Source: Subdoligranulum variabile (GTDB lineage Bacteria; Bacillota; Clostridia; Oscillospirales; Ruminococcaceae). Taken from it: DNA of 64,000 nucleotides. The DNA is taken from assembly GCA_004552305.1 (NCBI GenBank), contig SFOX01000008.1:8-64007 (forward strand), given 5' to 3'. Under the pieces are notes generated by a model. That model made no database searches. It had not been told where the DNA came from and saw nothing but the letters and a program-made list of their open reading frames with translations. A program made the translations under genes and the position numbers. Each line of letters opens with the position of its first letter. The first letter of the stretch is position 1. This document shows positions 16,753-28,481 of this stretch, piece by piece.

Positions 16753-17235
16753 ATGATTTCTGCAGGCGAATTCCGTAACGGCGTCACCTTCGAGCAGGAC
16801 GGCCAGGTCCTTCAGGTCGTTGAGTTCCAGCACGTCAAGCCCGGCAAGGGCGCTGCTTTCGTGCGCACCAAGACCAAGGAAGTCACCTACTCTTACGAGG
16901 ACGGCGACCTGTACCACTTTATGGACGTTGAAACCTACGACGATATCCCCGTAGGCGCCAACGATGTGCCCGACAACTTCAAATTCTGCAAAGAGAACGA
17001 CACCTGCAAGCTGCTGAGCTACAAGGGTAAGGTTTTCAGCGTGGAAATCCCCAACTTTGTTGAGCTGGAAGTCACCGCTACCGAGCCGGGCGTCAAGGGC
17101 AACACCGCTACCAACACCCTGAAGCCCGCCACCGTCGAGACCGGTGCCGAGATCCGCGTCCCCCTGTTCATCAACGAGGGCGACAAGATCCGCATCGATA
17201 CCCGCACCGGCGAGTATATGGAGCGCGTCAACTGA
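16753..17235 (+). CDS. efp: Elongation factor P, about 26 aa shorter than canonical (internal in-frame gap)
   Basis: 160 aa. The [12 protein letters not shown] loop is present and domains II/III are intact ([44 protein letters not shown]). The segment between VRTK and TKEVTYSY is missing. Confidence 0.85.
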
Positions 17236-18126: not shown

Positions 18127-18414
18127 TTACTTTTTCTGCAAGGCGCCCTGCAGCATAATGTCGCCGAAGGACAGCGCGTTGTACAGCCCCACCTTGTTGG
18201 CCTGGCGGACAATGCGCTCCGGCAGGGGCTTGCTGTCGTCGGTGGAAAGCAGCACAATGTGTACCTTATCTGCCACCTCGGCACCGTTTTCCTGCTTGTT
18301 GCTCAGCACCTGCAGGTAGACGACATACGGGTCCGTCATGGAGCCGTAGTAAATATCATTGCCGCAGCGCACCAGCGGGCGGCCTTTATAGGTCAGTTTG
18401 GGAGTAAAAGCCAT
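18127..18414 (-). CDS. Hypothetical small protein
   Basis: 95-aa ORF with RBS GAAAGAAGG and its own promoter. I recognise no motif. Confidence 0.6.
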   Translation of the reverse strand: MAFTPKLTYKGRPLVRCGNDIYYGSMTDPYVVYLQVLSNKQENGAEVADKVHIVLLSTDDSKPLPERIVRQANKVGLYNALSFGDIMLQGALQKK

Positions 18415-18456: not shown

Positions 18457-18485
18457 ATTATAGCACAGTTTCGGCTGTATTACAA
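18457..18485 (-). promoter_or_regulatory. Promoter of the 95-aa gene; its -35 overlaps the DUF2304 stop codon
   Basis: Minus strand TTGTAA-N17-TATAAT with TGc extended -10. Confidence 0.5.
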
Positions 18486-18851
18486 ATCCATTTTGTCGTC
18501 GCGGTCATGATCTTCCTGCTTTTGCTGGTTCAGCGCCACGCGCTCGGTCAAAACGCGCAGGCGGCTGTCCAGCTGGCTGACCCGGATGGATAGCATAAAT
18601 TGACGTGCCAACAGCAAAAAGATGATAATCAAATACACGCAGTTGATGGGGCTGACAAAGCCCAGCAAGCCGGACACCCAGTACGCAATGCCCGGAAACA
18701 GCGCCACCAGCAGCAAAACAGCGCTGAGCGCCAGCCAGTAGATGGTATCCTCGATCTGCACGCGCGCCTGCCGCACGCGGCGCAGCACATACCCCGCCGT
18801 GGCAAAAGCGCCCAGAATCAGGCAGATGCGCAAAACAGTTTGGTCGGTCAT
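18480..18851 (-). CDS. DUF2304-family small membrane protein
   Basis: 123 aa, 4 TMs. Typical partner located just downstream of a GT2 gene. Confidence 0.75.
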   Translation of the reverse strand: MTDQTVLRICLILGAFATAGYVLRRVRQARVQIEDTIYWLALSAVLLLVALFPGIAYWVSGLLGFVSPINCVYLIIIFLLLARQFMLSIRVSQLDSRLRVLTERVALNQQKQEDHDRDDKMDL

Positions 18852-18852
18852 A

Positions 18853-19572
18853 TCACAGGCTCCTTTCCGGGTAGGGGGTTTCGGTGTCGCGCTTGCGGAA
18901 CCACTGGATCAGCAAAATGGACACCGACATTTTTACCATATACTGCACGCTGCGCCAGAGGGTCAGGTAGCTCTGCCCTGCCGTGCGCTCGCCCATTTTG
19001 ACCTGTACCTCCTTGACCTTGGCACCGTTTTTGATCAGGTAGCTGATGGTATCCGGCTCCGGTCCGTAGTTGAGGTTTTCGGCAAATTCCTGCACCATGG
19101 CGCGGTTGAACATCCGCATACCGCTGGTGGGGTCGCAGATGGCGCGCCCCGTCGTCAGCCGGATCGACCAGCTGATGATATAGCTGCCCACCATACGCAG
19201 TGTTTTGGGCTTTTTGACCGTTAAAAAGCGGCTGCCGATGACGATATCGCTGCCTTCCTCCAGCGCAGCCAGCATTTCGGCAATGTATTCCGGCTTGTGC
19301 TGCCCGTCGGCGTCCATCTGCATGGCGCAGTCGTAGTCATGCTCAGCGGCGTAGCGCAGCCCGGTCTGAAACGCCCCTGCCAGCCCCAGATTGACCGGCA
19401 GGTCAATGAGGTGGAACCCATTCTGGCGGCAGAGCGCGGCGGTCTTGTCGCGGCTGCCGTCGTTGACCACCACATAATCGTACTGGGGGTAGTTTTCTAT
19501 CAGATCCCTGACCACCGGCACGATGCTGGCTTCCTCGTTATGGGCGGGGATAACAATCAGTAACTTTTGCAT
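18853..19572 (-). CDS. Glycosyltransferase family 2
   Basis: 239 aa. VIPAHNEE, VVNDGSRD and MDADGQH (DxD) motifs. Confidence 0.9.
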   Translation of the reverse strand: MQKLLIVIPAHNEEASIVPVVRDLIENYPQYDYVVVNDGSRDKTAALCRQNGFHLIDLPVNLGLAGAFQTGLRYAAEHDYDCAMQMDADGQHKPEYIAEMLAALEEGSDIVIGSRFLTVKKPKTLRMVGSYIISWSIRLTTGRAICDPTSGMRMFNRAMVQEFAENLNYGPEPDTISYLIKNGAKVKEVQVKMGERTAGQSYLTLWRSVQYMVKMSVSILLIQWFRKRDTETPYPERSL

Positions 19573-19581
19573 AAATGCTCC

Positions 19582-20703
19582 TTAGTTTACGATGCTGCGC
19601 AGTTTTTCGTACACGGCTTGCCATGTGAACCGCCCCAGCAGCGTTTGTTTTGCCCGTTGGCTGCGCGCCTTGGCGGCTGCCGGGTCGGCAGCGGTCTTTT
19701 GCAGGGCGGCGGCAATTTCCGCCGTGTCGGCGCTTGGCAGGAATAGGGCATCGTCCCCGCCGGGCAGCAGCTCGCCGGTACCCGCCGTGTGCGTGCAGAC
19801 GATCGGGCAGCCGCAGGCAGCCGCCTCCAGCAAAGTCGTGGGAAAGCCCTCGGCGTAGAGGGTGGGCAGGCAGTAGCAGTCGGCTTGGCTGAGCAGCTGC
19901 ACGATCTGCGCGTGCGGCAGCGCACCGGGGGCGACCACACGCCCGCCGCTTTGCTGTGCCAGCTGCTGCAGCGCGTCCAGCTGCGGACCGTTGCCGACAA
20001 CGACCAGGCTCCAGTCCGGCAGGCTGAGCACCGCCTGCGCCAAGGGCAGCGCGCCTTTTTCGGGGATCAGCCGCCCCACAAACGCCGCCAGCTTGGTGCC
20101 GGCAGGCACAGTTTTGCGCCAATCTACGCGGTTTTTGTCCGCCGCTGCCTGTGCCAGCTCATCGGGGTCCACGGCGTTGGGCAGCGTACCCGCTGCCTGT
20201 ATGCCGAAGGTTTGCAGCCAGCGGCAGGTGTCGGCGGACACGCCGTAAAAATCAAAGCCGCAGCGGGCAATGCGGCGGCAGGCAAAATGCTCGTACCGCT
20301 GCCCCAGCCAGCCGGGCAGCCCGCCGTGCATCATATACCCGGTCGAGTGGTCCAGCACCAGCGCCGGGATGCCCCGCCGCCGGCACTGCTGCGCCGCCCA
20401 GATGCTTTGGGTGTACATCCGCGTCTGGATCACGGCAAAGTCGATTTTTTGCGCCCACAGATCGGCGGCATTCGCCCACGGCTTCAGCACGGGGAACCGC
20501 CCGCCCATCACGGGAAAGGACGGCAGGCGGTAAATTTCGATGCCGTATTCGTCGGTTTCGCGCGCGGGCAGCCCCGGCAGCGCCGCCGTTACGACCAGCG
20601 CCCGATGCCCCGCCGCGGTGAAACGCCGCGCCAGATTCCAAGTATAGCGCTCGACCCCGCCGGGTGTGGGCAGGTACTGCGCCGAGAAAAAACAGATGGT
20701 CAT
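19582..20703 (-). CDS. Glycosyltransferase family 4 (GT-B)
   Basis: 373 aa. N-terminal YLPTPGGVERY, C-terminal EGFPTTLLEAAACGCPIV. Confidence 0.88.
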   Translation of the reverse strand: MTICFFSAQYLPTPGGVERYTWNLARRFTAAGHRALVVTAALPGLPARETDEYGIEIYRLPSFPVMGGRFPVLKPWANAADLWAQKIDFAVIQTRMYTQSIWAAQQCRRRGIPALVLDHSTGYMMHGGLPGWLGQRYEHFACRRIARCGFDFYGVSADTCRWLQTFGIQAAGTLPNAVDPDELAQAAADKNRVDWRKTVPAGTKLAAFVGRLIPEKGALPLAQAVLSLPDWSLVVVGNGPQLDALQQLAQQSGGRVVAPGALPHAQIVQLLSQADCYCLPTLYAEGFPTTLLEAAACGCPIVCTHTAGTGELLPGGDDALFLPSADTAEIAAALQKTAADPAAAKARSQRAKQTLLGRFTWQAVYEKLRSIVN

Positions 20704-20711
20704 ACCTCACC

Positions 20712-21218
20712 TTACACCTTTGCGCCGAAGGCCGCCTGCACGGCAGCCTGCCAGCGCCCGTCCTGCCGCAGAATGGCCTCAACGGCACCGCGCACGGCAC
20801 CCGCGCCGCCCGCTTGGGGGCAGACATAGTCCGCCGCCGCTCTGACCTCGGGGGCGGCATCGGCGGGGCAGGCAACAAACCCGCACAGCGCCATCGCCGC
20901 CAAGTCGTTCAAATCATCGCCGCAGTAGGCGACCTGCTGCGCATCGCAGCCGTTTTGCTGCATAAAATCACGCAGAAACGCCGCTTTGTCGGACACGTTC
21001 TGGTACACATCGGTGATTTTTAAATCCGCGGCGCGGCGGCGCACCGCTGCGCTTTCGCGCCCGGTGCAGATCACCGTCCGGATGCCCGCCGCGCGCGCCA
21101 GCACCAGCCCGGCGCCGTCCTTGATGGCGAACTTTTTCAGCTCGTTGCCGGTGGCGTCGTAGTAAACGCCGCCGTCGGTCAGGGTGCCGTCCACGTCCAG
21201 AATCAGATATCGTATCAC
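20712..21218 (-). CDS. KdsC-family HAD phosphatase (ulosonate-phosphate phosphatase-like)
   Basis: 168 aa from a GTG that overlaps the upstream stop (GTGA). DVDGTLTDG and GDDLNDL motifs. The 232-aa ORF-track version is an upstream extension. Confidence 0.8.
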   Translation of the reverse strand: MIRYLILDVDGTLTDGGVYYDATGNELKKFAIKDGAGLVLARAAGIRTVICTGRESAAVRRRAADLKITDVYQNVSDKAAFLRDFMQQNGCDAQQVAYCGDDLNDLAAMALCGFVACPADAAPEVRAAADYVCPQAGGAGAVRGAVEAILRQDGRWQAAVQAAFGAKV

Positions 21219-22780
21219 GGCATAGCTCCTTCGTACTCGCTGGGGGTCAAAAATTCCACCGGCAGCCCCACGGTGCGCATGGCCCCGGCAATCTGCCGGT
21301 TGTAGCCCTCGCCGCGCCCGGTGTGGGTGTGCAGCCCGGCGTCCGCGTAGGCAGCCGTGCCGGGGCGGTAGCCGTCGGCACCCGCCAGCTTGACCTTGGC
21401 GGCATCGCACAGCCGCAGCAGGCGCAGCAGCATCAGCATACTGTTGCCGCCCTGGTCGTCGGCGGTGGAAAGCCGGTCGTAGTTCAGCACGGCACCCTGC
21501 TTGGCAGAGCGCAGGTTGCTGGTCAGGATCAGGCGGCAGGGGTAGGTCTTATCCTCCTCAAAGCGCTTGGCGTTAGAGAAAAAGGCGTAATCCACTGTGC
21601 GCTCGCCCGGCACAAAGTTGACCGACACCGTCACATCGGCATCGGCGGCTGCCACGGCAGCCTGCCCGGCGGGGGTGGCAAGGCTGGCGCCGGGTGCCAG
21701 CACCAGCACGGTCTTGCCCGCAAAGGCGGCATGCAGGTCGTGCAGGGCTTCGTCATCCTGCACGCGGCGGTTCTTGTATTCCTGATACAGCGTGTCGGCG
21801 TAAGCCTTGTCAAAGGCGGTCTTTTTTTCGGGTGCGATGGCAGCCAGAATGTGGTTGATGTCGCGGTTGGTCAAATCGCCCTTGCCCAGATAATGCTCGG
21901 CATAGTTGCGGTGCAGGTTGAACCGCGCCGACAAAAAATACGCCGGGGTGTAGCCCCACGGGCTTTCGCCCTTGATGGGGGCGATGTAATCCTGAATGGC
22001 GTCCATGATCTGATCCAGATCAAAGTGGCGGGCGCAGTTCTCGTTCATATAATCGGCGGTCAGCTCAATGGGAAGGTTGCCGGGGATACGCCCCATGCCG
22101 ATCAGACTTGCGTCCACGGTTTTATCGCGCTGCAGCGGCATTTCCAAAAATTCCTGCGCAAGGCAGAAGCTCAGCGCCATATTCTCGTGCAGGTGCAGCC
22201 CCAGCCGGATGGCGGGGTCCAGATTGTGGTCGGCCAGCGCGGTGATGCGCTGCAGATCCTTGCGGCGCATACTGCCGAAGGTATCCACAATAGAGAACTG
22301 CCACGGGTGGATTTTGTTGACCTCGTCCAGGATCCACAAAATCTCGCTGTCGGTGTAGCCCATAATGTTGATGGGGTTGATCGCCAGCTTGTAGCCGCGC
22401 GCCTTGACCTCCCGCGCAAAGTCCATGCCCTCGCGGATGTCGTAGTCGTGTGCGGTAATGCGCAGAATTTCAATGCCGGTGCCGTCGTAGGGCGTCAGCT
22501 TGCGGATATCGTAGTTGGAGCGCATCGCCATGCCGGAGTACATTGTACTGCCGCGGCTGCCCGGCGGGGGCAGCAGGCGGTTCAGCTCCTCGATGGTGTT
22601 GCAGACGGTGACGTCGGGGTCGTAGCCCGGCACGTTGCGCAGAAAGCCGACCTCGACAATATCCACCCCGGCGTTGGTCAGCGCCCGGATGATATGCTTG
22701 GCGGGGGATGCCCCCCACTGCCAGTTGTTGATATATCCGCCGTCGCGCAGGGTGCAGTCCAACAGCTTTACGTCAGGCAT
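21215..22780 (-). CDS. Fusion protein: DRE-TIM (HMGL-like) aldolase N-domain plus MptE/DUF115-like C-domain
   Basis: 521 aa. LDCTLRDGG and LHLHEN (metal ligands) in the N-domain. VLVLAPGASL ... KVKLAGADGY resembles the DUF115 GPS / G-x-D pattern. Confidence 0.75.
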   Translation of the reverse strand: MPDVKLLDCTLRDGGYINNWQWGASPAKHIIRALTNAGVDIVEVGFLRNVPGYDPDVTVCNTIEELNRLLPPPGSRGSTMYSGMAMRSNYDIRKLTPYDGTGIEILRITAHDYDIREGMDFAREVKARGYKLAINPINIMGYTDSEILWILDEVNKIHPWQFSIVDTFGSMRRKDLQRITALADHNLDPAIRLGLHLHENMALSFCLAQEFLEMPLQRDKTVDASLIGMGRIPGNLPIELTADYMNENCARHFDLDQIMDAIQDYIAPIKGESPWGYTPAYFLSARFNLHRNYAEHYLGKGDLTNRDINHILAAIAPEKKTAFDKAYADTLYQEYKNRRVQDDEALHDLHAAFAGKTVLVLAPGASLATPAGQAAVAAADADVTVSVNFVPGERTVDYAFFSNAKRFEEDKTYPCRLILTSNLRSAKQGAVLNYDRLSTADDQGGNSMLMLLRLLRLCDAAKVKLAGADGYRPGTAAYADAGLHTHTGRGEGYNRQIAGAMRTVGLPVEFLTPSEYEGAMP

Positions 22781-23507
22781 CGTGCTTCTCCTTCAAAATT
22801 TCGTTGACCAGCGCCAGATCCTTGGGCGTATCGACGCTGACTGTCTTGTACGGGCTTACGATGGCGTGTACCTTGCGCCCGTTTTCGACATAGCGCATCA
22901 TATCGTTTTCCTCGGCGCGTTCCAAGATGGACTTGGGGGTGTCGTGGTAGAACTGCAGCGCCTGCTTGCTGTACAGCTGAATGCCGGTGACCTTCTCGTA
23001 GTCAAAATCCAGCGTGCCTTTGGGGTACGGGATGGGGCTGCGGGAGATCATCAGCACCTCGCGCGCGGCGTTGGTGACGACCTTCTGGTTGGAAAAATCC
23101 ACCACGTCCGCCGGGTGCTGCATCACGTTGGTCAGCACCGCCACATAGCAGGCATCGTCGGGCAGGGTGTCGGGCAAAATCAAATCGAACGCCGCGGGGT
23201 CAACCAGCGGCTCGTCGCCCATCAGCTGCAGGTACAGGTCGGCGTCCACCTTGGTGCTGACCTCCCAGATGCGCCCGGTGGGGGTGTCGTGGTCGGGGCT
23301 GGTCATCACGCATTTCATATCGTACTGTGCGCAGACGTCAGCGATGCGCGTATCGTCTGTGGCAATCAGCACATCGTCCAGCTTGGCGCACGCCCTGGCG
23401 GCGCGGTACACCCACCAGATCATCGGCTTGCCCAGCACATCGGCCAAGGGCTTGCCGGGCATACGGGTGCTGGCATAGCGGGCGGGAATCACGGCAATGG
23501 TTTTCAT
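22773..23507 (-). CDS. KdsB-like 3-deoxy-ulosonate cytidylyltransferase
   Basis: 244 aa. IPARYASTRMPGKPLADVLGKPMIWWVY is a typical KdsB N-terminus. Confidence 0.85.
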   Translation of the reverse strand: MKTIAVIPARYASTRMPGKPLADVLGKPMIWWVYRAARACAKLDDVLIATDDTRIADVCAQYDMKCVMTSPDHDTPTGRIWEVSTKVDADLYLQLMGDEPLVDPAAFDLILPDTLPDDACYVAVLTNVMQHPADVVDFSNQKVVTNAAREVLMISRSPIPYPKGTLDFDYEKVTGIQLYSKQALQFYHDTPKSILERAEENDMMRYVENGRKVHAIVSPYKTVSVDTPKDLALVNEILKEKHDA

Positions 23508-23520
23508 GGCAGTTTCCTCT

Positions 23521-24486
23521 TTACAATAAAGAACGGGCTTCGTCCAGCGTCAGGTGTATCTTTTCTTCGGCGGCGGTGAATCCGCGCAGCACAAAGCTTT
23601 GCACCGTGACGGCACGGCGGAAGGTAAACGGCAGGCAGAAGTTCAGCACCTCGCTGGGCATGGTGCGCTGTAAAATCACAGCGCCGGGGAACAGGGCGGC
23701 GTAGTCGGTTTCATCGCGCGGGTGCGTCTTGATAAACAGCGGCCCTACGGTATATTTTTTTGCCACCGCTTGGAACATGGCATCCTGCTGCGCCTGCGTC
23801 AGCAAGCCGTCCTGCACAAAGCTGCGGGGCAAAAGCAGCGTTGCCCCGGCGGCGTTCTGCGGCAGCGGCTGCGTGATAAACACGCTGCGCACCATGGATT
23901 TTTCGCTCTCGGTCAGGCTTTGCAAAAGCTGCGCCTTGCTGTCACCGACGAGCTTTTCCGCCCCAAACAGGATGCAGCGGGCGGGATCCTCGCTCTCGAC
24001 CTTTTTGCAATAGCGGCTGTCGCCCCAGTAGAGATATCCCTTGCCGCTGCGCTGCTTTTTGGCAAAATCCGGCTGGCGGCGCTGGGCTTCGACCAGCGAT
24101 TGGTCGGGACCGATCGTGCTGGCAAAGGTGTCCTCGCACAGGGTGTAGGCGGCGCGGCAGTCCTGCAGATAGCGCCCCAGGACGCTCCAATCGTTATGGA
24201 TAAATATCTCCGCATAGCGGTCGGGCTGCAAGTGCCAGCCGCAGCGCTTTTCAAAGCCGCGGCGGTTGCGCTGCTGCCCCAGAAAGCCGGTGGCAATGCC
24301 CGGCCAGGCATCCTCGCGCACAAGGATCGGCGTCACAACACCGGTGGCGCGCAGCCTTTGCGCCAGCGCCTGCGCCTCGGGTACCTTGGCAGAAAGCACC
24401 AATTCGTGGGGGGCGCCCGCCGTGCGGGATGCCCGCACCAGATCGATCAGCACTTGATACGCCGTGTGGCAGATATACAGATTCAT
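23521..24486 (-). CDS. Putative ulosonic/sialic-acid transferase (GT52-like)
   Basis: 321 aa from the ATG overlapping the wzt stop (ATGA). N-terminal LYICHTAYQVLI resembles the GT52 ICxTPLQ pattern. IKTHPRDE is an HP-type motif. The family call is tentative. Confidence 0.5.
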   Translation of the reverse strand: MNLYICHTAYQVLIDLVRASRTAGAPHELVLSAKVPEAQALAQRLRATGVVTPILVREDAWPGIATGFLGQQRNRRGFEKRCGWHLQPDRYAEIFIHNDWSVLGRYLQDCRAAYTLCEDTFASTIGPDQSLVEAQRRQPDFAKKQRSGKGYLYWGDSRYCKKVESEDPARCILFGAEKLVGDSKAQLLQSLTESEKSMVRSVFITQPLPQNAAGATLLLPRSFVQDGLLTQAQQDAMFQAVAKKYTVGPLFIKTHPRDETDYAALFPGAVILQRTMPSEVLNFCLPFTFRRAVTVQSFVLRGFTAAEEKIHLTLDEARSLL

Positions 24487-25766
24487 CCCTCTGCCTCCAC
24501 CAGCTTGACCGGCGGGAAGTGGATGCGTCCCCAGCCGGGCGCCCATTCGGGGATGCTCATATCGCTGGGGGTCACCTCAAAGGCGAACTCCACGGCAGGC
24601 TTGTCGAGGCAGACCGCGCTGCCGATCACGCCGTCAAAGACATCCAGATAGAAGTAATACTGCCCCGCGCCCAGCATGGCGGGGTCAAACTCAAACACGG
24701 TGGTGTACAGCCTGCCCGGTTCGGCGGCGCCGAGGTTGACCGGGTGGGTGATGCCCACGGGCGAGGAATCCCGCGCGTGGAGGTTCATCTTCATATTGAT
24801 GCCGGCAAACGGCTCGGTGACGCGCCACTGGATTTGCACCCGCACCGGCTCATTGTCGGCAAAAACGCTGGACTCCTTGCCCAAAAAGCGCAGGCTTTCC
24901 AACCGCAGGCGCTGCCCGGCGCCGACGTTCATACGCCCGACCTTGCGCAGGTCATAGTGTACCACGTTGACGTCGGTGGTATCCATATAGATGGCGATGG
25001 CTTTTTCGACGTCGCCGTCAAAGATGATGCGCCCCTGATCCAGCACGATGCAGCGGGTGCAGAGCTGGCGGATGGTGCTCATATTGTGGCTGACGTACAG
25101 CACGGTGCGCCCGTCCTCGTTGGCGACGTTGCTCATCTTGCCCAGACATTTCTGCTGGAATTTCATATCGCCGACCGCCAGCACCTCGTCCATCACCAGA
25201 ATTTCGCTGTCCAGATGCGCCGCCACGGCGAACGCCAGCTTGACAAACATACCGCTGGAATAGCGCTTGACGGGGGTGTCGATAAAATCGCCGCACTCGG
25301 AAAATTCAATGATCTGCGGCAGCTTGGCGTCGATCTCGGCGCGGGACATACCCAAAATTGCGCCGTTCATATAGATGTTTTCGCGCCCGGTCATCTCGTT
25401 GTTGAAGCCGGTGCCGACCTCCAGCATACTGGAAATGCGCCCCTTGATGCGGATCTCGCCCTCGGTGGGGGCGGTGATGCGGGTCAGCAGCTTGAGCAGG
25501 GTGGATTTTCCGGCGCCGTTGCGCCCGATAATGCCCAGCGCCTCGCCCTTGTACACGGTCAGGTCCACGCCGTTGAGCGCCATAAAGGTCTGCCCGTACA
25601 GCCGCGTGTCGGTGCCGATGATGGTGTTGGGATCCTCCTTGCCGCGCACACGCGCCCACCAGCTTTGCAGATCGTGCGTCAGCGTGCCGCCGCCGATCTG
25701 TCCGAGCTTGTACTGCTTTTTCAGCCCCTCAATTTCAATAACGGGGGTCTTTTCGGTTTTCTGCAT
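24483..25766 (-). CDS. Polysaccharide ABC exporter ATP-binding protein (Wzt/TagH-like) with a C-terminal beta-sandwich domain
   Basis: 427 aa from the ATG after GAGGAGGGGG. GRNGAGKST, YSSGM and ILVMDE motifs, plus a ~170-aa C-terminal extension. Confidence 0.9.
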   Translation of the reverse strand: MQKTEKTPVIEIEGLKKQYKLGQIGGGTLTHDLQSWWARVRGKEDPNTIIGTDTRLYGQTFMALNGVDLTVYKGEALGIIGRNGAGKSTLLKLLTRITAPTEGEIRIKGRISSMLEVGTGFNNEMTGRENIYMNGAILGMSRAEIDAKLPQIIEFSECGDFIDTPVKRYSSGMFVKLAFAVAAHLDSEILVMDEVLAVGDMKFQQKCLGKMSNVANEDGRTVLYVSHNMSTIRQLCTRCIVLDQGRIIFDGDVEKAIAIYMDTTDVNVVHYDLRKVGRMNVGAGQRLRLESLRFLGKESSVFADNEPVRVQIQWRVTEPFAGINMKMNLHARDSSPVGITHPVNLGAAEPGRLYTTVFEFDPAMLGAGQYYFYLDVFDGVIGSAVCLDKPAVEFAFEVTPSDMSIPEWAPGWGRIHFPPVKLVEAEG

Positions 25767-25777
25767 AGTCCCCCTCC

Positions 25778-26644
25778 TCACACGGTGTCCATAAAGGTCT
25801 TTTCAATGCGGCTGAACAGCACTACGCCCAAAACCAACGCCGCAGCGGTAAATACCAGGCTGTAGGCGACGCCCCACGCGGTCACGGTGCCGCCGCCCAG
25901 CGTCGCGGCGCGGAACACCTCGATGGGGGCGGTCATGGGGTTGAACTGCAGCAGCGCCTGCAGGCGGGGGCTGTTGTTCAGCATCGAAACGGGATACACC
26001 ACAGGGGAGGCGTACATCCACAGCTGCACGCCGAAGCCCACGGCAATGGCAAGGTCGCGGTATTTGGTGGTCAGGCTGGACACAATGATGCCCACGCCCA
26101 GCCCCAGCAGCATGACCTGCAGCATAACCACCGGCAGCGCCAGCACCCACAGGCTGAGGTGCATCTGCGCACCGGTCAGGGCAAAGTACACCCAGAAGCA
26201 GGCAAACATCGCGCACTGCACAAGGAAGTTGATGAGCGCCGTCAGCACCTGACTGATGGGGGTGGTCAGGCGCGGAAAGTACACCTTGCCGAACACACCC
26301 GAGTTGGCAACAAAGGTATTGGCGGTGTTGTTGACACAGTTGGCAAAGAAGGTCCAGACCGTGTTGCCCGCCATATAAAACAAAAACGCCGGTGTGCCGT
26401 CGGTCGAAAGCCCTGCCAGCCCGCCGAACACCACGTTGAAGATCACGGTGGTCAGCAGCGGGTTCAGGATGATCCACGCCGGGCCCAGAATGGTCTGCTT
26501 GTACAGCACGGTAAAGTTGCGCTTGACGAACATCCCGATCAGGTCACGGTAGCGCCACAGCTCTGCCAGATCTATATCAAACCAACCGGTCCGCGGGCGC
26601 ACCACAGCGGTCCATTCGGCGGTGTTTTGCGTTTTTTCGCTCAT
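25778..26644 (-). CDS. ABC-2 type polysaccharide exporter permease (Wzm/TagG-like)
   Basis: 288 aa from MSEKTQ, 6 TMs. Confidence 0.88.
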   Translation of the reverse strand: MSEKTQNTAEWTAVVRPRTGWFDIDLAELWRYRDLIGMFVKRNFTVLYKQTILGPAWIILNPLLTTVIFNVVFGGLAGLSTDGTPAFLFYMAGNTVWTFFANCVNNTANTFVANSGVFGKVYFPRLTTPISQVLTALINFLVQCAMFACFWVYFALTGAQMHLSLWVLALPVVMLQVMLLGLGVGIIVSSLTTKYRDLAIAVGFGVQLWMYASPVVYPVSMLNNSPRLQALLQFNPMTAPIEVFRAATLGGGTVTAWGVAYSLVFTAAALVLGVVLFSRIEKTFMDTV

Positions 26645-26684
26645 AAAAAAAGCCTTTCTGTGTAAAATTTGCATATATGTTAGG

Positions 26685-26713
26685 ATTATACCACATATCG
26701 AGGGATTTTACAA
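26685..26713 (-). promoter_or_regulatory. Promoter of the 9-gene glycan operon
   Basis: Minus strand TTGTAA-N17-TATAAT with TGg extended -10, about 40 nt upstream of the wzm ATG. Confidence 0.55.
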
Positions 26714-26861: not shown

Positions 26862-28481
26862 ATGGCAACCAAGTATATTTTTGTCACAGGCGGTGTTGTG
26901 TCCGGGTTGGGAAAGGGCATCACCGCCGCCAGTCTGGGGCGGCTGCTGAAAACCCGCGGGCTGAAGGTCGCCAGCCAAAAGCTGGACCCGTACATCAACG
27001 TGGACCCCGGCACGATGAGCCCCTTGCAGCACGGCGAGGTGTTCGTGACCGACGACGGCACCGAAACGGATCTGGACTTGGGACATTATGAACGTTTTAT
27101 CGACGAAAACCTGAACAAATATTCCAACCTGACCACCGGCAAGGTCTACTGGAACGTGCTGAACAAGGAGCGTCAGGGCGCGTATCTGGGGCAGACCGTG
27201 CAGATCATCCCCCACATCACCGACGAGATCAAGAGCTACATCTACAACCTTGCCCGCAGCACCGAGGCGGACGTTGTCATTACCGAAATCGGCGGCACGA
27301 CCGGCGACATCGAAAGCCAGCCTTTTTTGGAAGCGATCCGTCAGGTCGGGCTGGAGCAGGGCGCCGAAAACTGCTGCTACATCCATGTGGTGCTGGTGCC
27401 GTACATCTCCGGCTCGGACGAGTACAAGTCCAAGCCGGCGCAGCATTCCTGCAAGGAGCTGCAGGGCATGGGCATTGCGCCCAACGTCATTGTGCTGCGC
27501 GCCGATGGTCCCGTGGGCAACGATATCAAGCACAAAATCAGTATGTTCTGCAACGTGCGCCCCGACTGTGTCATTGAAAACCTGACGATGCCCAGCCTGT
27601 ACGAGTGTCCGCTGATGCTGGATGCCGCCGGGCTGACCGACGTCGTGACCCGCCAGCTGCATCTTGACACCCCCGCCAGCGACCTGACCGAATGGAAGGA
27701 GCTGATCGGGCGCATTGCTGCGCGCAGCCGCACCTGCCGCATTGCGCTGGTGGGCAAGTATGTCAAGCTGCACGACGCCTACCTGAGCGTGATGGAAAGC
27801 CTGTACCACGCGGGCTTTGAGAACGAGTGCAAGGTGGATATCCGCTGGGTGGACAGCGAAAATCTGACCGATCAGGCACGCTGCGCCGAGGAATTTGCCG
27901 ATGTGGACGGCATCATCCTGCCCGGCGGATTTGGCGACCGCGGCATCGAAGGGATGATCCAGGCTGCCCGCTATGCCCGCGAAAACAACCTGCCGTATTT
28001 CGGCATCTGCCTGGGTATGCAGATCATGGTGATGGAGTACGCGCGCGGCGTGCTGGGCTATGCGGACGCCAACTCCGGCGAGTTTACCCCCGACGGTGCG
28101 CACAACGTCATTGCCCTGATGCCCGACCAGCAGGGCAATATCCCCAAGGGCGGCACGATGCGCTTGGGCAAGTACCCCTGCGCGGTCACCCCCGGCACCA
28201 AGATGGCGGAATGCTACGGCACCGCCCAGATCGACGAGCGCCACCGCCACCGCTACGAGTTCAACAACGATTACCGCGCCGAGTTTGAGGAGAAGGGGCT
28301 TGTCATTGCAGGCACCAGCCCCGACGGGCATCTGGTGGAAGCGGTGGAGATCCCGGGACGCGCGTTCCATGTGGGCGTGCAGTTCCACCCCGAATTCAAG
28401 AGCCGCCCCAACCGCGCCCACCCGCTGTTTAAAGGGTTTATTGCGGCCGCGATGCAATACCAGCTGCAGAAGAACCAATAA
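26862..28481 (+). CDS. pyrG: CTP synthase
   Basis: 539 aa. [19 protein letters not shown], and the GATase motif GICLGMQ. Confidence 0.97.

Follow-up and report, generated by a model that had tools for sequence, protein, structure and literature searches.

The window analyzed here is a stretch of 64,000 nucleotides (nt) from a Subdoligranulum variabile genome (contig SFOX01000008.1), and the system in question is an operon of nine genes on its minus strand, which occupies positions 18480-26713 including the promoter and whose open reading frames (ORFs) fill 18480-26674. The operon is real and conserved: the same gene set and order was found in 11 relatives (Gemmiger, Subdoligranulum, Allofournierella and others), and the same operon also occurs in 22 of 300 sampled genomes of the bacterial family. 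It encodes an ATP-binding cassette (ABC) exporter, several glycosyltransferases and a cassette that may form a cytidine monophosphate (CMP)-activated ulosonic acid, in which a two-domain aldolase fusion is the candidate sugar-forming enzyme. The closest homologues of the operon proteins come from Gemmiger, Subdoligranulum and Allofournierella (Oscillospiraceae, Clostridia). An earlier note on this DNA, made without database searches, had placed the nine ORFs at these coordinates and named their families, and both agree with the Pfam and NCBIfam results for the nine proteins. The features are, in the direction of transcription:

26685-26713, minus strand: sigma-70-type promoter with a TG extended -10 (TTGTAA-17 nt-TATAAT)
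25778-26644 (ORF opens at 26674), minus strand: Wzm, ABC-2 permease (PF01061, 67.5 bits; weaker matches to galactan Wzm and KpsM)
24483-25781 (likely start ATG 25766), minus strand: Wzt, ABC ATPase with a C-terminal extension (PF00005, 78.6 bits; TagH/Wzt NCBIfam models)
24486-24983, minus strand: putative Wzt_C-type domain of Wzt, about 160 residues (PF14524 below threshold; Atlas neighbours)
23521-24486, minus strand: GT52-like, sialyltransferase-type GT-B transferase of 321 residues, candidate CMP-ulosonate transferase (PF07922, motifs)
22773-23507, minus strand: KdsB/KpsU-like CMP-ulosonate synthetase of 244 residues (PF02348, 137 bits; NF003952)
21770-22780, minus strand: DRE-TIM (HMGL-like), metal-dependent pyruvate aldolase domain and helical linker, residues 1-337 of the 521-residue fusion (PF00682)
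21218-21769, minus strand: X domain with an MptE/Maf/sialyltransferase fold, residues 338-521 of the 521-residue fusion (predicted-structure comparison)
20712-21218, minus strand: KdsC-like HAD phosphatase of 168 residues with a GTG start (TIGR01670)
19582-20703, minus strand: GT4 retaining-type glycosyltransferase of 373 residues (PF00534, PF13439; no equivalog reached)
18853-19572, minus strand: GT2, GacI/PpgS/WpsA-like putative polyprenyl-phosphate-(hexose/N-acetylhexosamine) synthase of 239 residues (PF00535)
18480-18851, minus strand: DUF2304 small membrane protein, GacJ/WpsB/Rv3632-like putative GT2 activator (PF10066, 87 bits)

The genes are tightly packed: three junctions overlap, two by 4 nt and one by 8 nt, and the others are gaps of 1, 8, 9, 13 and at most 11 nt, in line with the spacing of 13 nt or less that had been described before. 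The promoter proposed at 26713-26685 was recovered as well, and its position fits the operon start; its region is rich in promoter-like sites (9, shuffled sequence giving 3.1 ± 1.7), and taken by itself the match is only moderately significant. For wzm, the ATG at 26674 lies only 10 nt past the -10 hexamer and the ATG at 26644 is preceded by the ribosome-binding site AGAAAGG, the latter being probably the true start. The starts of the GT52-like and KdsC-like genes were corrected to ATG 24486, in an ATGA overlap with the wzt stop, and to GTG 21218, in a GTGA overlap with the aldolase stop and with AGGAG 7 nt upstream, respectively.

The cytidylyltransferase groups with synthetases of CMP-3-deoxy-D-manno-octulosonate (CMP-Kdo), as seen from its match to E. 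coli K-CKS (1GQ9, E 1.2e-47) and from a score of 215 bits with NF003952 (cut-off 193). NeuA-type enzymes were matched at 1e-8 or worse, NeuA and PseF being far weaker than K-CKS, and the kdsB equivalog TIGR00466 gave 123 bits at a cut-off of 155. The phosphatase falls into the KdsC/KDN-9-P family (TIGR01670, 138 bits, cut-off 107), as the earlier note had claimed for a KdsC-like enzyme, and is equally near to KdsC (1J8D, 1.7e-31) and to the KDN-9-P phosphatase of B. thetaiotaomicron (3E81, 3.1e-30); with the KDN-9-P phosphatase model it scored 138.5 bits, under that model's own cut-off of 180.

The genome scanned for further ulosonate genes is a Gemmiger metagenome-assembled genome (MAG) of 1.96 Mb in 76 contigs with 91.7% completeness. 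No kdsA was found in it, both DAHP_synth_1 matches being DAHP synthases; for KdsD/KpsF, the best TIGR00393 match in the genome scan reached 31.8 bits at a cut-off of 203.7, and neither LpxC nor WaaA was found in the genome, so that the operon genes are not regarded as lipopolysaccharide genes. A single neuB is present, on a separate contig (C66) and in a self-contained locus. This region (C66:4000-23000) encodes NeuC, NeuB, a PtmE-like nucleotidyltransferase, DegT, two GFO/IDH oxidoreductases and its own PseF/NeuA-like CTP_transf_3 and, divergently beside the NeuB genes, a second Wzm, a short Wzt (258 residues, nucleotide-binding domain (NBD) only), two double-GT2 proteins of about 610 residues and a 353-residue protein; it looks like a legionaminic-type nonulosonate glycan locus. 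As a cytidylyltransferase and an ABC transporter are both encoded within the C66 locus itself, the NeuB there is not taken to be the missing synthase of the operon. With no KdsA or KdsD in the scan and NeuB tied to another locus, the aldolase fusion is therefore the only candidate for the sugar-forming enzyme, and since KdsA and KdsD were looked for in the genome and not found, the operon is not regarded as a member of the Kdo pathway.

The description of this protein as an aldolase-MptE fusion was right at the level of fold: the MptE half has no Pfam match of its own, and fold comparison agrees. The full-length 521-residue protein was modelled with a predicted local distance difference test score (pLDDT) of 95.9 and a predicted template modelling score of 0.90. 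Its aldolase domain matches PF00682 (53.5 bits), and sequence and Foldseek comparisons link the barrel to 3DXI (Foldseek, 6e-18) and to the DmpG-type structures 1NVM (Foldseek, 5.5e-16), 8IH7, 4LRS and 4JN6. The structure 3DXI represents the N-terminal part of BVU_2661, a protein from Bacteroides that belongs to the same two-domain fusion family. R12-D13, H196 and H198, which correspond to the R-D...H-x-H metal site of DRE-TIM enzymes, are conserved to at least 90% among 121 aligned relatives.

With E ≤ 1e-3, the fusion family comprises 3662 representative clusters, of which 639 remain at E ≤ 1e-30, and relatives were found in at least 592 species genomes, mostly of gut Clostridia, with further hosts in Bacteroides, Treponema, Melainabacteria, an alphaproteobacterium and an Akkermansia-labelled MAG. 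Neighbourhoods were counted in the best 80 species loci (L007-L086), considering genes within 7 kb of the fusion. A CTP_transf_3 gene is present in 70 of these 80 loci, typically as the immediate upstream neighbour, and a HAD phosphatase gene (KdsC-like or HAD_2) in 60, typically immediately downstream; Wzm/Wzt accompany the cassette in 23 loci and a Wzx flippase in 10. Moreover, the parts occur as natural fusions, namely aldolase-X-CTP_transf_3 (P0219, P0233, P0253), aldolase-X-HAD (P0263) and PF00682 with PF08282 (P0053). Co-location and natural fusion of the parts are good evidence for a single route to a CMP-activated acid in which the phosphatase and the cytidylyltransferase work together with the aldolase fusion. 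Presence of the HAD gene was also compared with DegT-type amino-sugar loci, which might have marked two substrate classes, and no such pattern was seen. No description of the cassette was found in the open-access papers and preprints searched. Within the set of larger fusions (P0200, P0219, P0233, P0253, P0263, P0053), one protein has an N-terminal HpcH/HpaI aldolase; this form would carry two pyruvate aldolases in one chain.

The dedicated transferase that had been suggested for this operon is, by sequence, a sialyltransferase-type GT-B enzyme with a K-x-H-P-x-D motif. It matches PF07922 at 28.6-28.8 bits (gathering score 26.1) and polyST marginally (E 0.075); among 17 relatives, E118-D119, K253-x-H255-P256-x-D258, P277-x-E279 and S297 are invariant, 13 match GT52 and 14 match polysialyltransferase (polyST). 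An acidic pair together with an HP motif are hallmarks of bacterial GT-B enzymes that use CMP-sugars. A profile search of Protein Data Bank (PDB) sequences with the GT52-like family returned nothing meaningful. The family occurs in a short form of about 320 residues, which is found in the Gemmiger clade together with the long Wzt and scores as GT52, and a long form of about 520 residues from Lachnospiraceae loci with an NBD-only Wzt, two scanned members of which pass the polysialyltransferase threshold. The GT52 enzymes that are known add one terminal sialic acid only, and the short form resembles such single-addition enzymes. GT52-like genes (26 loci) and stand-alone MptE-like PF01973 genes (14 loci) were never found together in the 80 loci, and 40 loci have neither near the cassette; this mutual exclusion fits alternative transferases for one sugar. 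The combination of NBD-only Wzt and long transferase was observed in L025, L027, L029, L042, L043, L045 and L081 (Lachnospiraceae, Blautia, Treponema). The long form of L042, the one copy read, has a helical, coiled-coil-like tail, and the same loci encode one or two proteins of 700-900 residues, perhaps polymerases; the single copy that was scanned gave no Pfam match.

The presence of a Wzm/Wzt pair in a glycan locus places the operon among ABC-dependent export systems, and the TagH/Wzt models cover residues 63-267 of its Wzt. The C-terminal extension, given earlier as about 170 residues and measured here as about 160, is Wzt_C-like in that all 30 nearest named Atlas clusters are Wzt_C (0.95-0.96), but its Pfam hit is below threshold. 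This C-domain (57-79% identity) was found in 22 of the 300 genomes, distributed over 11 genera, and 18 of these 22 carry the aldolase-X gene within about 2-4 kb on the same contig. In the remaining four, and in one control, the GT52-like gene directly follows wzt; in three of the four, the KdsB-like gene comes next or lies at a contig end, whereas for the fourth (G199) the query used recovered no KdsB-like gene and aldolase-X opens another contig. In all 22 genomes the GT52-like gene is the direct downstream neighbour of this domain, and the sample contains no case of the C-domain apart from transferase and cassette, even where the aldolase is only 36-37% identical, which supports a functional link between the Wzt C-domain, the transferase and the cassette.

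In Raoultella terrigena, WbbB adds a terminal beta-Kdo (PMC9587256), and in the Gram-negative systems studied the carbohydrate-binding domain of Wzt recognizes the modified chain terminus (PMC9445017). The earlier note had transferred this Klebsiella O12/Raoultella logic to the operon. As a functional analogy this is reasonable, but the systems are not homologous, as the transferase is GT52-like and not GT99; general Pfam and NCBIfam scans gave no GT99/WbbB match among the nine proteins, and no dedicated search was run. The previous interpretation therefore stands with regard to the cytidylyltransferase, the phosphatase, the Wzt_C-like extension and the sialyltransferase-type enzyme, and its likeness to WbbB holds at the functional level only. 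Recognition of a cap appears to be the best single reading for the Gemmiger-type operon, with a chance that we would put at nearly even.

The last two genes, left uninterpreted before, change the likely assembly scheme. The GT2 protein matches PF00535 (97 bits), its best NCBIfam model being PpgS (97 bits, cut-off 370), from which no sugar specificity can be read. The GT2 and DUF2304 genes lie 1 nt apart, as in the GacI/GacJ arrangement, and on sequence grounds the pair is assigned as a GacI/GacJ-type polyprenyl-phosphate-sugar synthase module. GacI makes N-acetylglucosamine (GlcNAc)-P-undecaprenol and is bound and strongly activated by the DUF2304 protein GacJ, whereupon the sugar is passed on, outside the membrane, by the GT-C enzyme GacL; in mycobacteria, PpgS/Rv3632 is the corresponding pair (10.1101/180810). 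In lactococci, WpsB stimulates WpsA, and the WpsA/WpsB product serves as a primer that is extended by cytoplasmic transferases before export and moved onto rhamnan by a GT-C enzyme (PMC10821137). The lactococcal scheme would fit the operon well, and GT2 with DUF2304 may supply the otherwise missing primer; this role is suggested because the operon has no initiating enzyme and the only PF00953 protein of the genome is MraY, the PF00953 scan of the genome having revealed no WecA/TagO. Furthermore, all 11 close relatives encode a polytopic DUF2142 membrane protein of about 880 residues between kdsC and GT4 (e.g., L007:11895-14702). In the rgp loci of streptococci, GT2 genes are found together with DUF2142 proteins (PMC9746298), and in the genome studied here paralogues with 27-39% identity are located on contigs C31 and C44.

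Taken together, we propose that this is an ABC-dependent surface-glycan operon of a monoderm gut Clostridium with its own pathway to a CMP-3-deoxy-2-ulosonic acid of the Kdo/Kdn class, a reading of the sequence comparisons that we consider just short of an even chance. The DRE-TIM aldolase domain would condense pyruvate with a phosphorylated aldose from central metabolism to an ulosonate phosphate, the KdsC-like phosphatase would take off the phosphate, and the KpsU/KdsB-like enzyme would yield the CMP-sugar; aldol condensation with an aldose phosphate followed by dephosphorylation is proposed because it is the simplest scheme that uses all parts. The GT52-like, metal-independent GT-B enzyme would then move the sugar to a lipid-linked glycan that may be extended by GT4 and is perhaps primed on polyprenyl-phosphate-N-acetylhexosamine from GT2 and DUF2304. 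Wzm/Wzt would export this glycan, the Wzt_C domain most likely checking the ulosonate-bearing terminus, and the acidic sugar would serve as a completion mark or cap in the Gemmiger-type clade. A GT-C-like DUF2142 protein, whose gene belongs to the operon in relatives and is represented by paralogues only in this genome, might place the glycan on the final wall acceptor. In its most specific form, the proposal is that aldolase-X is a phosphoenolpyruvate (PEP)-independent ulosonate synthase, non-homologous to KdsA/NeuB, which would open an undescribed route to a Kdo/Kdn-like or new acid that decorates the surfaces of hundreds of species of gut Clostridia, Bacteroidota and other groups, with this acid as an export-licensing cap read by Wzt in Gemmiger and relatives; this is put forward tentatively, and we regard it as somewhat less probable than its opposite.

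Several observations weigh against the scheme. The motif DCTLRDGGY of the aldolase has Tyr where DmpG-type aldolases carry the catalytic His, which in these enzymes stands next to the RDG motif, and the aldolase could cleave instead or form another 2-oxo acid. As KdsC and the KDN-9-P phosphatase are equally close to the phosphatase of the operon, a C8 and a C9 sugar are indistinguishable. Aldolase-only forms of about 335-350 residues (L042, L043, L045, L047; 51-54% identical over residues 1-337) lack X and have a KdsC-like gene adjacent; because these loci keep the phosphatase, the phosphorylated intermediate does not depend on X. With regard to the exporter, the Wzt_C match (PF14524, residues 293-402, E 3.1e-5) scores 24.4 bits, below the gathering score of 30.4, and a profile of the Wzt C-domain matched no solved carbohydrate-binding domain among the PDB sequences. 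The link between the C-domain and the cassette reflects one vertically inherited operon with no independent replication, and about 45 further genomes of the family have the cassette without this C-domain. Priming could also be supplied by two PF02397 phosphoglycosyl transferases encoded elsewhere in the genome. The DUF2142 gene is cleanly absent in the window, with 8 nt between kdsC and GT4 (20703-20712), and as this gene is absent from the operon the last step may differ here. Finally, with GT4 and the GT52-like enzyme as the only chain builders, an alternating copolymer is equally buildable.

This last point leads to the main rival of the cap, in which the acid lies within the chain: GT4 and the GT52-like enzyme would alternate to give a hexose-ulosonate copolymer, teichulosonic-acid-like or capsule-like, that is exported by Wzm/Wzt, the C-domain binding the repeat or having another role. 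Gram-positive teichulosonic acids exist, and a GT4 hexosyltransferase is coupled with a sialyltransferase in the W/Y polymerases of Neisseria meningitidis. The operon encodes only two soluble chain-building transferases and neither a separate polymerase nor a coiled-coil ruler, the GT38 matches of 14 of the 17 transferase relatives point in the same direction, and many loci with the same cassette use an NBD-only Wzt and large proteins, like capsule or teichoic-acid systems. The transferase of the window itself, however, scores with GT52 (28.8 bits) and with polyST only at the marginal level given above, the Wzt C-domain always stands beside the transferase in this clade, and Wzt_C marks terminus-gated export in the systems studied (PMC9445017). 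We therefore consider an in-chain acid unlikely and retain the cap as the preferred reading.

The other alternatives turn on X, the C-terminal half of the fusion. Modelled alone with AlphaFold2, its 184 residues reached a pLDDT of 93. As compared by VIA-align, the nearest structures were the archaeal MptE HPPK 8SD5 (Z 11.7) and the Maf flagellin glycosyltransferase 5MU5 (Z 10.8), followed by SteA (Z 9.8), animal GT29 sialyltransferases (Z 8.7-9.8; 2WNF, Z 9.8), Campylobacter Cst-I 2P56 (Z 8.6) and thiamin pyrophosphokinases (about Z 7), against a background of about Z 4-5. Foldseek with the isolated domain gave weak hits (best 1.5e-3, to sialyltransferases and HPPK); the fold assignment therefore rests on VIA-align. 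Profile matches of X were weak, namely to a GT42 sialyltransferase on the invariant A-G-x-D-G-Y...N-Y (as compared to G-I-D-F-Y...N-Y) and to MptE on the first strand-loop. X of the window has no PF01973 match at E ≤ 1; among 60 relatives, 12 match PF01973 weakly (best E 0.0011) and two match CST-I. The nearest named Atlas clusters are MptE-like and WaaZ_KDO_III, at scores of 0.86-0.87. Conserved positions include one invariant acidic residue and conserved Asn, Arg, Ser/Thr and Tyr, with no conserved His; such a composition is closer to metal-independent CMP-sugar binding than to Mg-ATP chemistry. Only over the N-terminal G-x-G-x-S strand can X be aligned with the stand-alone MptE-like proteins from other loci, so it does not represent a mere fused copy of these. 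A 440-residue protein encoded upstream of the aldolase-only genes was considered as a detached X and rejected (hhalign probability 0.2%). We favour that X binds a nucleotide ligand and prefer a CMP-sugar, as an end-product sensor or accessory transferase, over a kinase function, this being the least certain part of the proposed scheme.

If X itself were the ulosonate transferase (Maf, WaaZ or GT42-like), the GT52-like enzyme would add a second ulosonate or use another acceptor, resulting in two acids or a short oligo-ulosonate. The fold shared with Maf (Z 10.8) and with the GT29/GT42 sialyltransferases (Z 8.6-9.8) as well as the alignment of the GT42 motif with the invariant A-G-x-D-G-Y...N-Y would agree with this, as would the MptE-like and WaaZ_KDO_III Atlas neighbours, at 0.86-0.87 only, and the 40 of 80 loci in which no GT52-like or stand-alone MptE-like gene is near. 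GT42 and GT29 enzymes use a catalytic His, however, and X has none that is conserved; its place in the triple fusions, between aldolase and cytidylyltransferase, would be an odd one if a membrane acceptor has to be reached, the top fold match is a pyrophosphokinase, aldolase-only loci exist, and X is present with either type of dedicated transferase. Such a role is thus quite improbable. Slightly less probable still is a kinase or pyrophosphokinase that uses ATP to phosphorylate the free aldose or to trap the aldol product, following the logic of animal sialic acid synthesis (kinase, synthase, phosphatase, CMP-synthetase) with ATP replacing the energy of PEP. Here, the structural neighbours MptE HPPK (Z 11.7) and thiamin pyrophosphokinases, the presence of a phosphatase in a cassette whose operon encodes no kinase, and a fusion to the aldolase that would channel the intermediate have to be set against the aldolase-only forms, whose KdsC-like neighbour makes the phosphate independent of X, and against the single invariant acidic residue, which is few for a Mg-ATP pyrophosphokinase. 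Very improbable, finally, is that no acid is made de novo and that the substrate of the KdsB-like enzyme is an ulosonic or sialic acid scavenged from host or diet, or the C66 NeuB product, with the fusion being catabolic or serving another metabolite: pyruvate aldolases usually favour cleavage and a complete NeuB-type pathway exists elsewhere in the genome, but the C66 locus comes with a cytidylyltransferase and an exporter of its own, NeuA and PseF are only distantly similar to the KdsB-like enzyme, a biosynthetic-type phosphatase is kept in the cassette, the aldolase is fused to the cytidylyltransferase or phosphatase in several lineages, and the trio is conserved inside glycan loci of hundreds of species. 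The preferred reading thus remains a route in which the aldolase domain forms the ulosonate and X would bind the CMP-sugar.

With respect to the surroundings of the operon, one further ORF follows the DUF2304 gene:

18127-18414, minus strand: 95-residue ORF, syntenic in 11 close relatives, with its own promoter-like site at 18485-18457

It always follows DUF2304 and is 79-94% identical in relatives, above most of the glycan genes; no Pfam or NCBIfam match was found for it. The hexamers of its promoter-like site (TTGTAA-17-TATAAT, TG-extended) are identical to those of the operon promoter, and its membership in the operon is uncertain. Downstream of it lie a convergent zinc-ribbon gene and then efp. 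The encoded EF-P (16753-17235, plus strand) has only 160 residues and its match to the KOW-like N-domain ends at profile position 42 of 58; an internal gap had also been noticed in the earlier reading. On the other side, the divergent pyrG (CTP synthase, 26862-28481, plus strand) lies upstream of the CTP-consuming operon; a functional link was considered and rejected, as pyrG is not syntenic in the loci of relatives and the adjacency is probably coincidental.

Ulosonic acids such as Kdo, Kdn, sialic, legionaminic and pseudaminic acid are key surface determinants in host-microbe recognition, and to our knowledge all known routes to them use PEP-dependent synthases of the KdsA/NeuB type. If the proposal is true, a pyruvate-aldolase route would be missed by current genome mining for sialic-acid-like sugars, and the hosts of the fusion, among which are many abundant commensals of human and animal guts (Gemmiger, Subdoligranulum, Lachnospiraceae, Blautia, Bacteroides), may show unnoticed acidic sugars. 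Export gated by the chain terminus would also be a first for a Gram-positive-type envelope. Small as it is, the Gemmiger-type operon seems to be self-contained, with initiation, two transferases, a sugar pathway and a gated exporter, and as the same operon is present in the cultured G. formicilis ATCC 27749, both the pathway and the cap idea are directly testable. As for its newness, the combination would vary known kinds, namely ABC export with a terminus-reading ATPase and CMP-ulosonate biosynthesis, and the synthase-less cassette is its most interesting content.

Each part of the operon can be set beside a characterized system. The transferase shares the acidic pair and HP motif, and a GT52 match above threshold, with the lipooligosaccharide sialyltransferase Lst of Neisseria (GT52) and the GT38 polysialyltransferases, whereas only its C-terminal half matches, no sequence-level match to solved GT52 structures was obtained, and its donor, unlike theirs, is probably not N-acetylneuraminic acid. 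The order GT2 then DUF2304 is common to GacI/GacJ/GacL of Streptococcus pyogenes, WpsA/WpsB/WpsJ of Lactococcus and PpgS/Rv3632 of Mycobacterium, and the DUF2142 protein of the relatives sits where the GT-C partner would be in the Gac and Wps systems; in contrast to these, an ABC transporter takes the place of a Wzx-type flippase here, and the GT-C-like gene is absent from the window. With the 4-hydroxy-2-oxovalerate aldolases DmpG/BphI/HsaF (1NVM, 4JN6) and with BVU_2661 the fusion shares the DRE-TIM barrel and its R-D, H-x-H metal/enolate site; as compared to DmpG/BphI/HsaF, it has no partner aldehyde dehydrogenase, a different C-terminal domain and Tyr for the catalytic His, and its gene context is glycan biosynthesis instead of aromatic or steroid catabolism. 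The canonical CMP-Kdo pathway proceeds via KdsD, KdsA, KdsC and KdsB (capsule paralogues KpsF and KpsU); its last two steps have clear homologues in the operon, whereas the first two enzymes were not found in the genome and the DRE-TIM aldolase-X stands in the place of the synthase. As compared to Klebsiella pneumoniae O12 and Raoultella terrigena, the operon has no coiled-coil ruler, belongs to a monoderm host in which lipopolysaccharide genes were not found, would make its sugar without KdsA and KdsD, so that this need not be Kdo, and has a C-domain whose binding is putative. Common to both are an ABC-2 exporter and an ATPase with a C-terminal extension, which in the operon is putatively of the Wzt_C type, as well as a dedicated transferase, a candidate one in the operon, for a CMP-activated ulosonic acid, and they would thus share the logic of a chain that is first finished and then exported.

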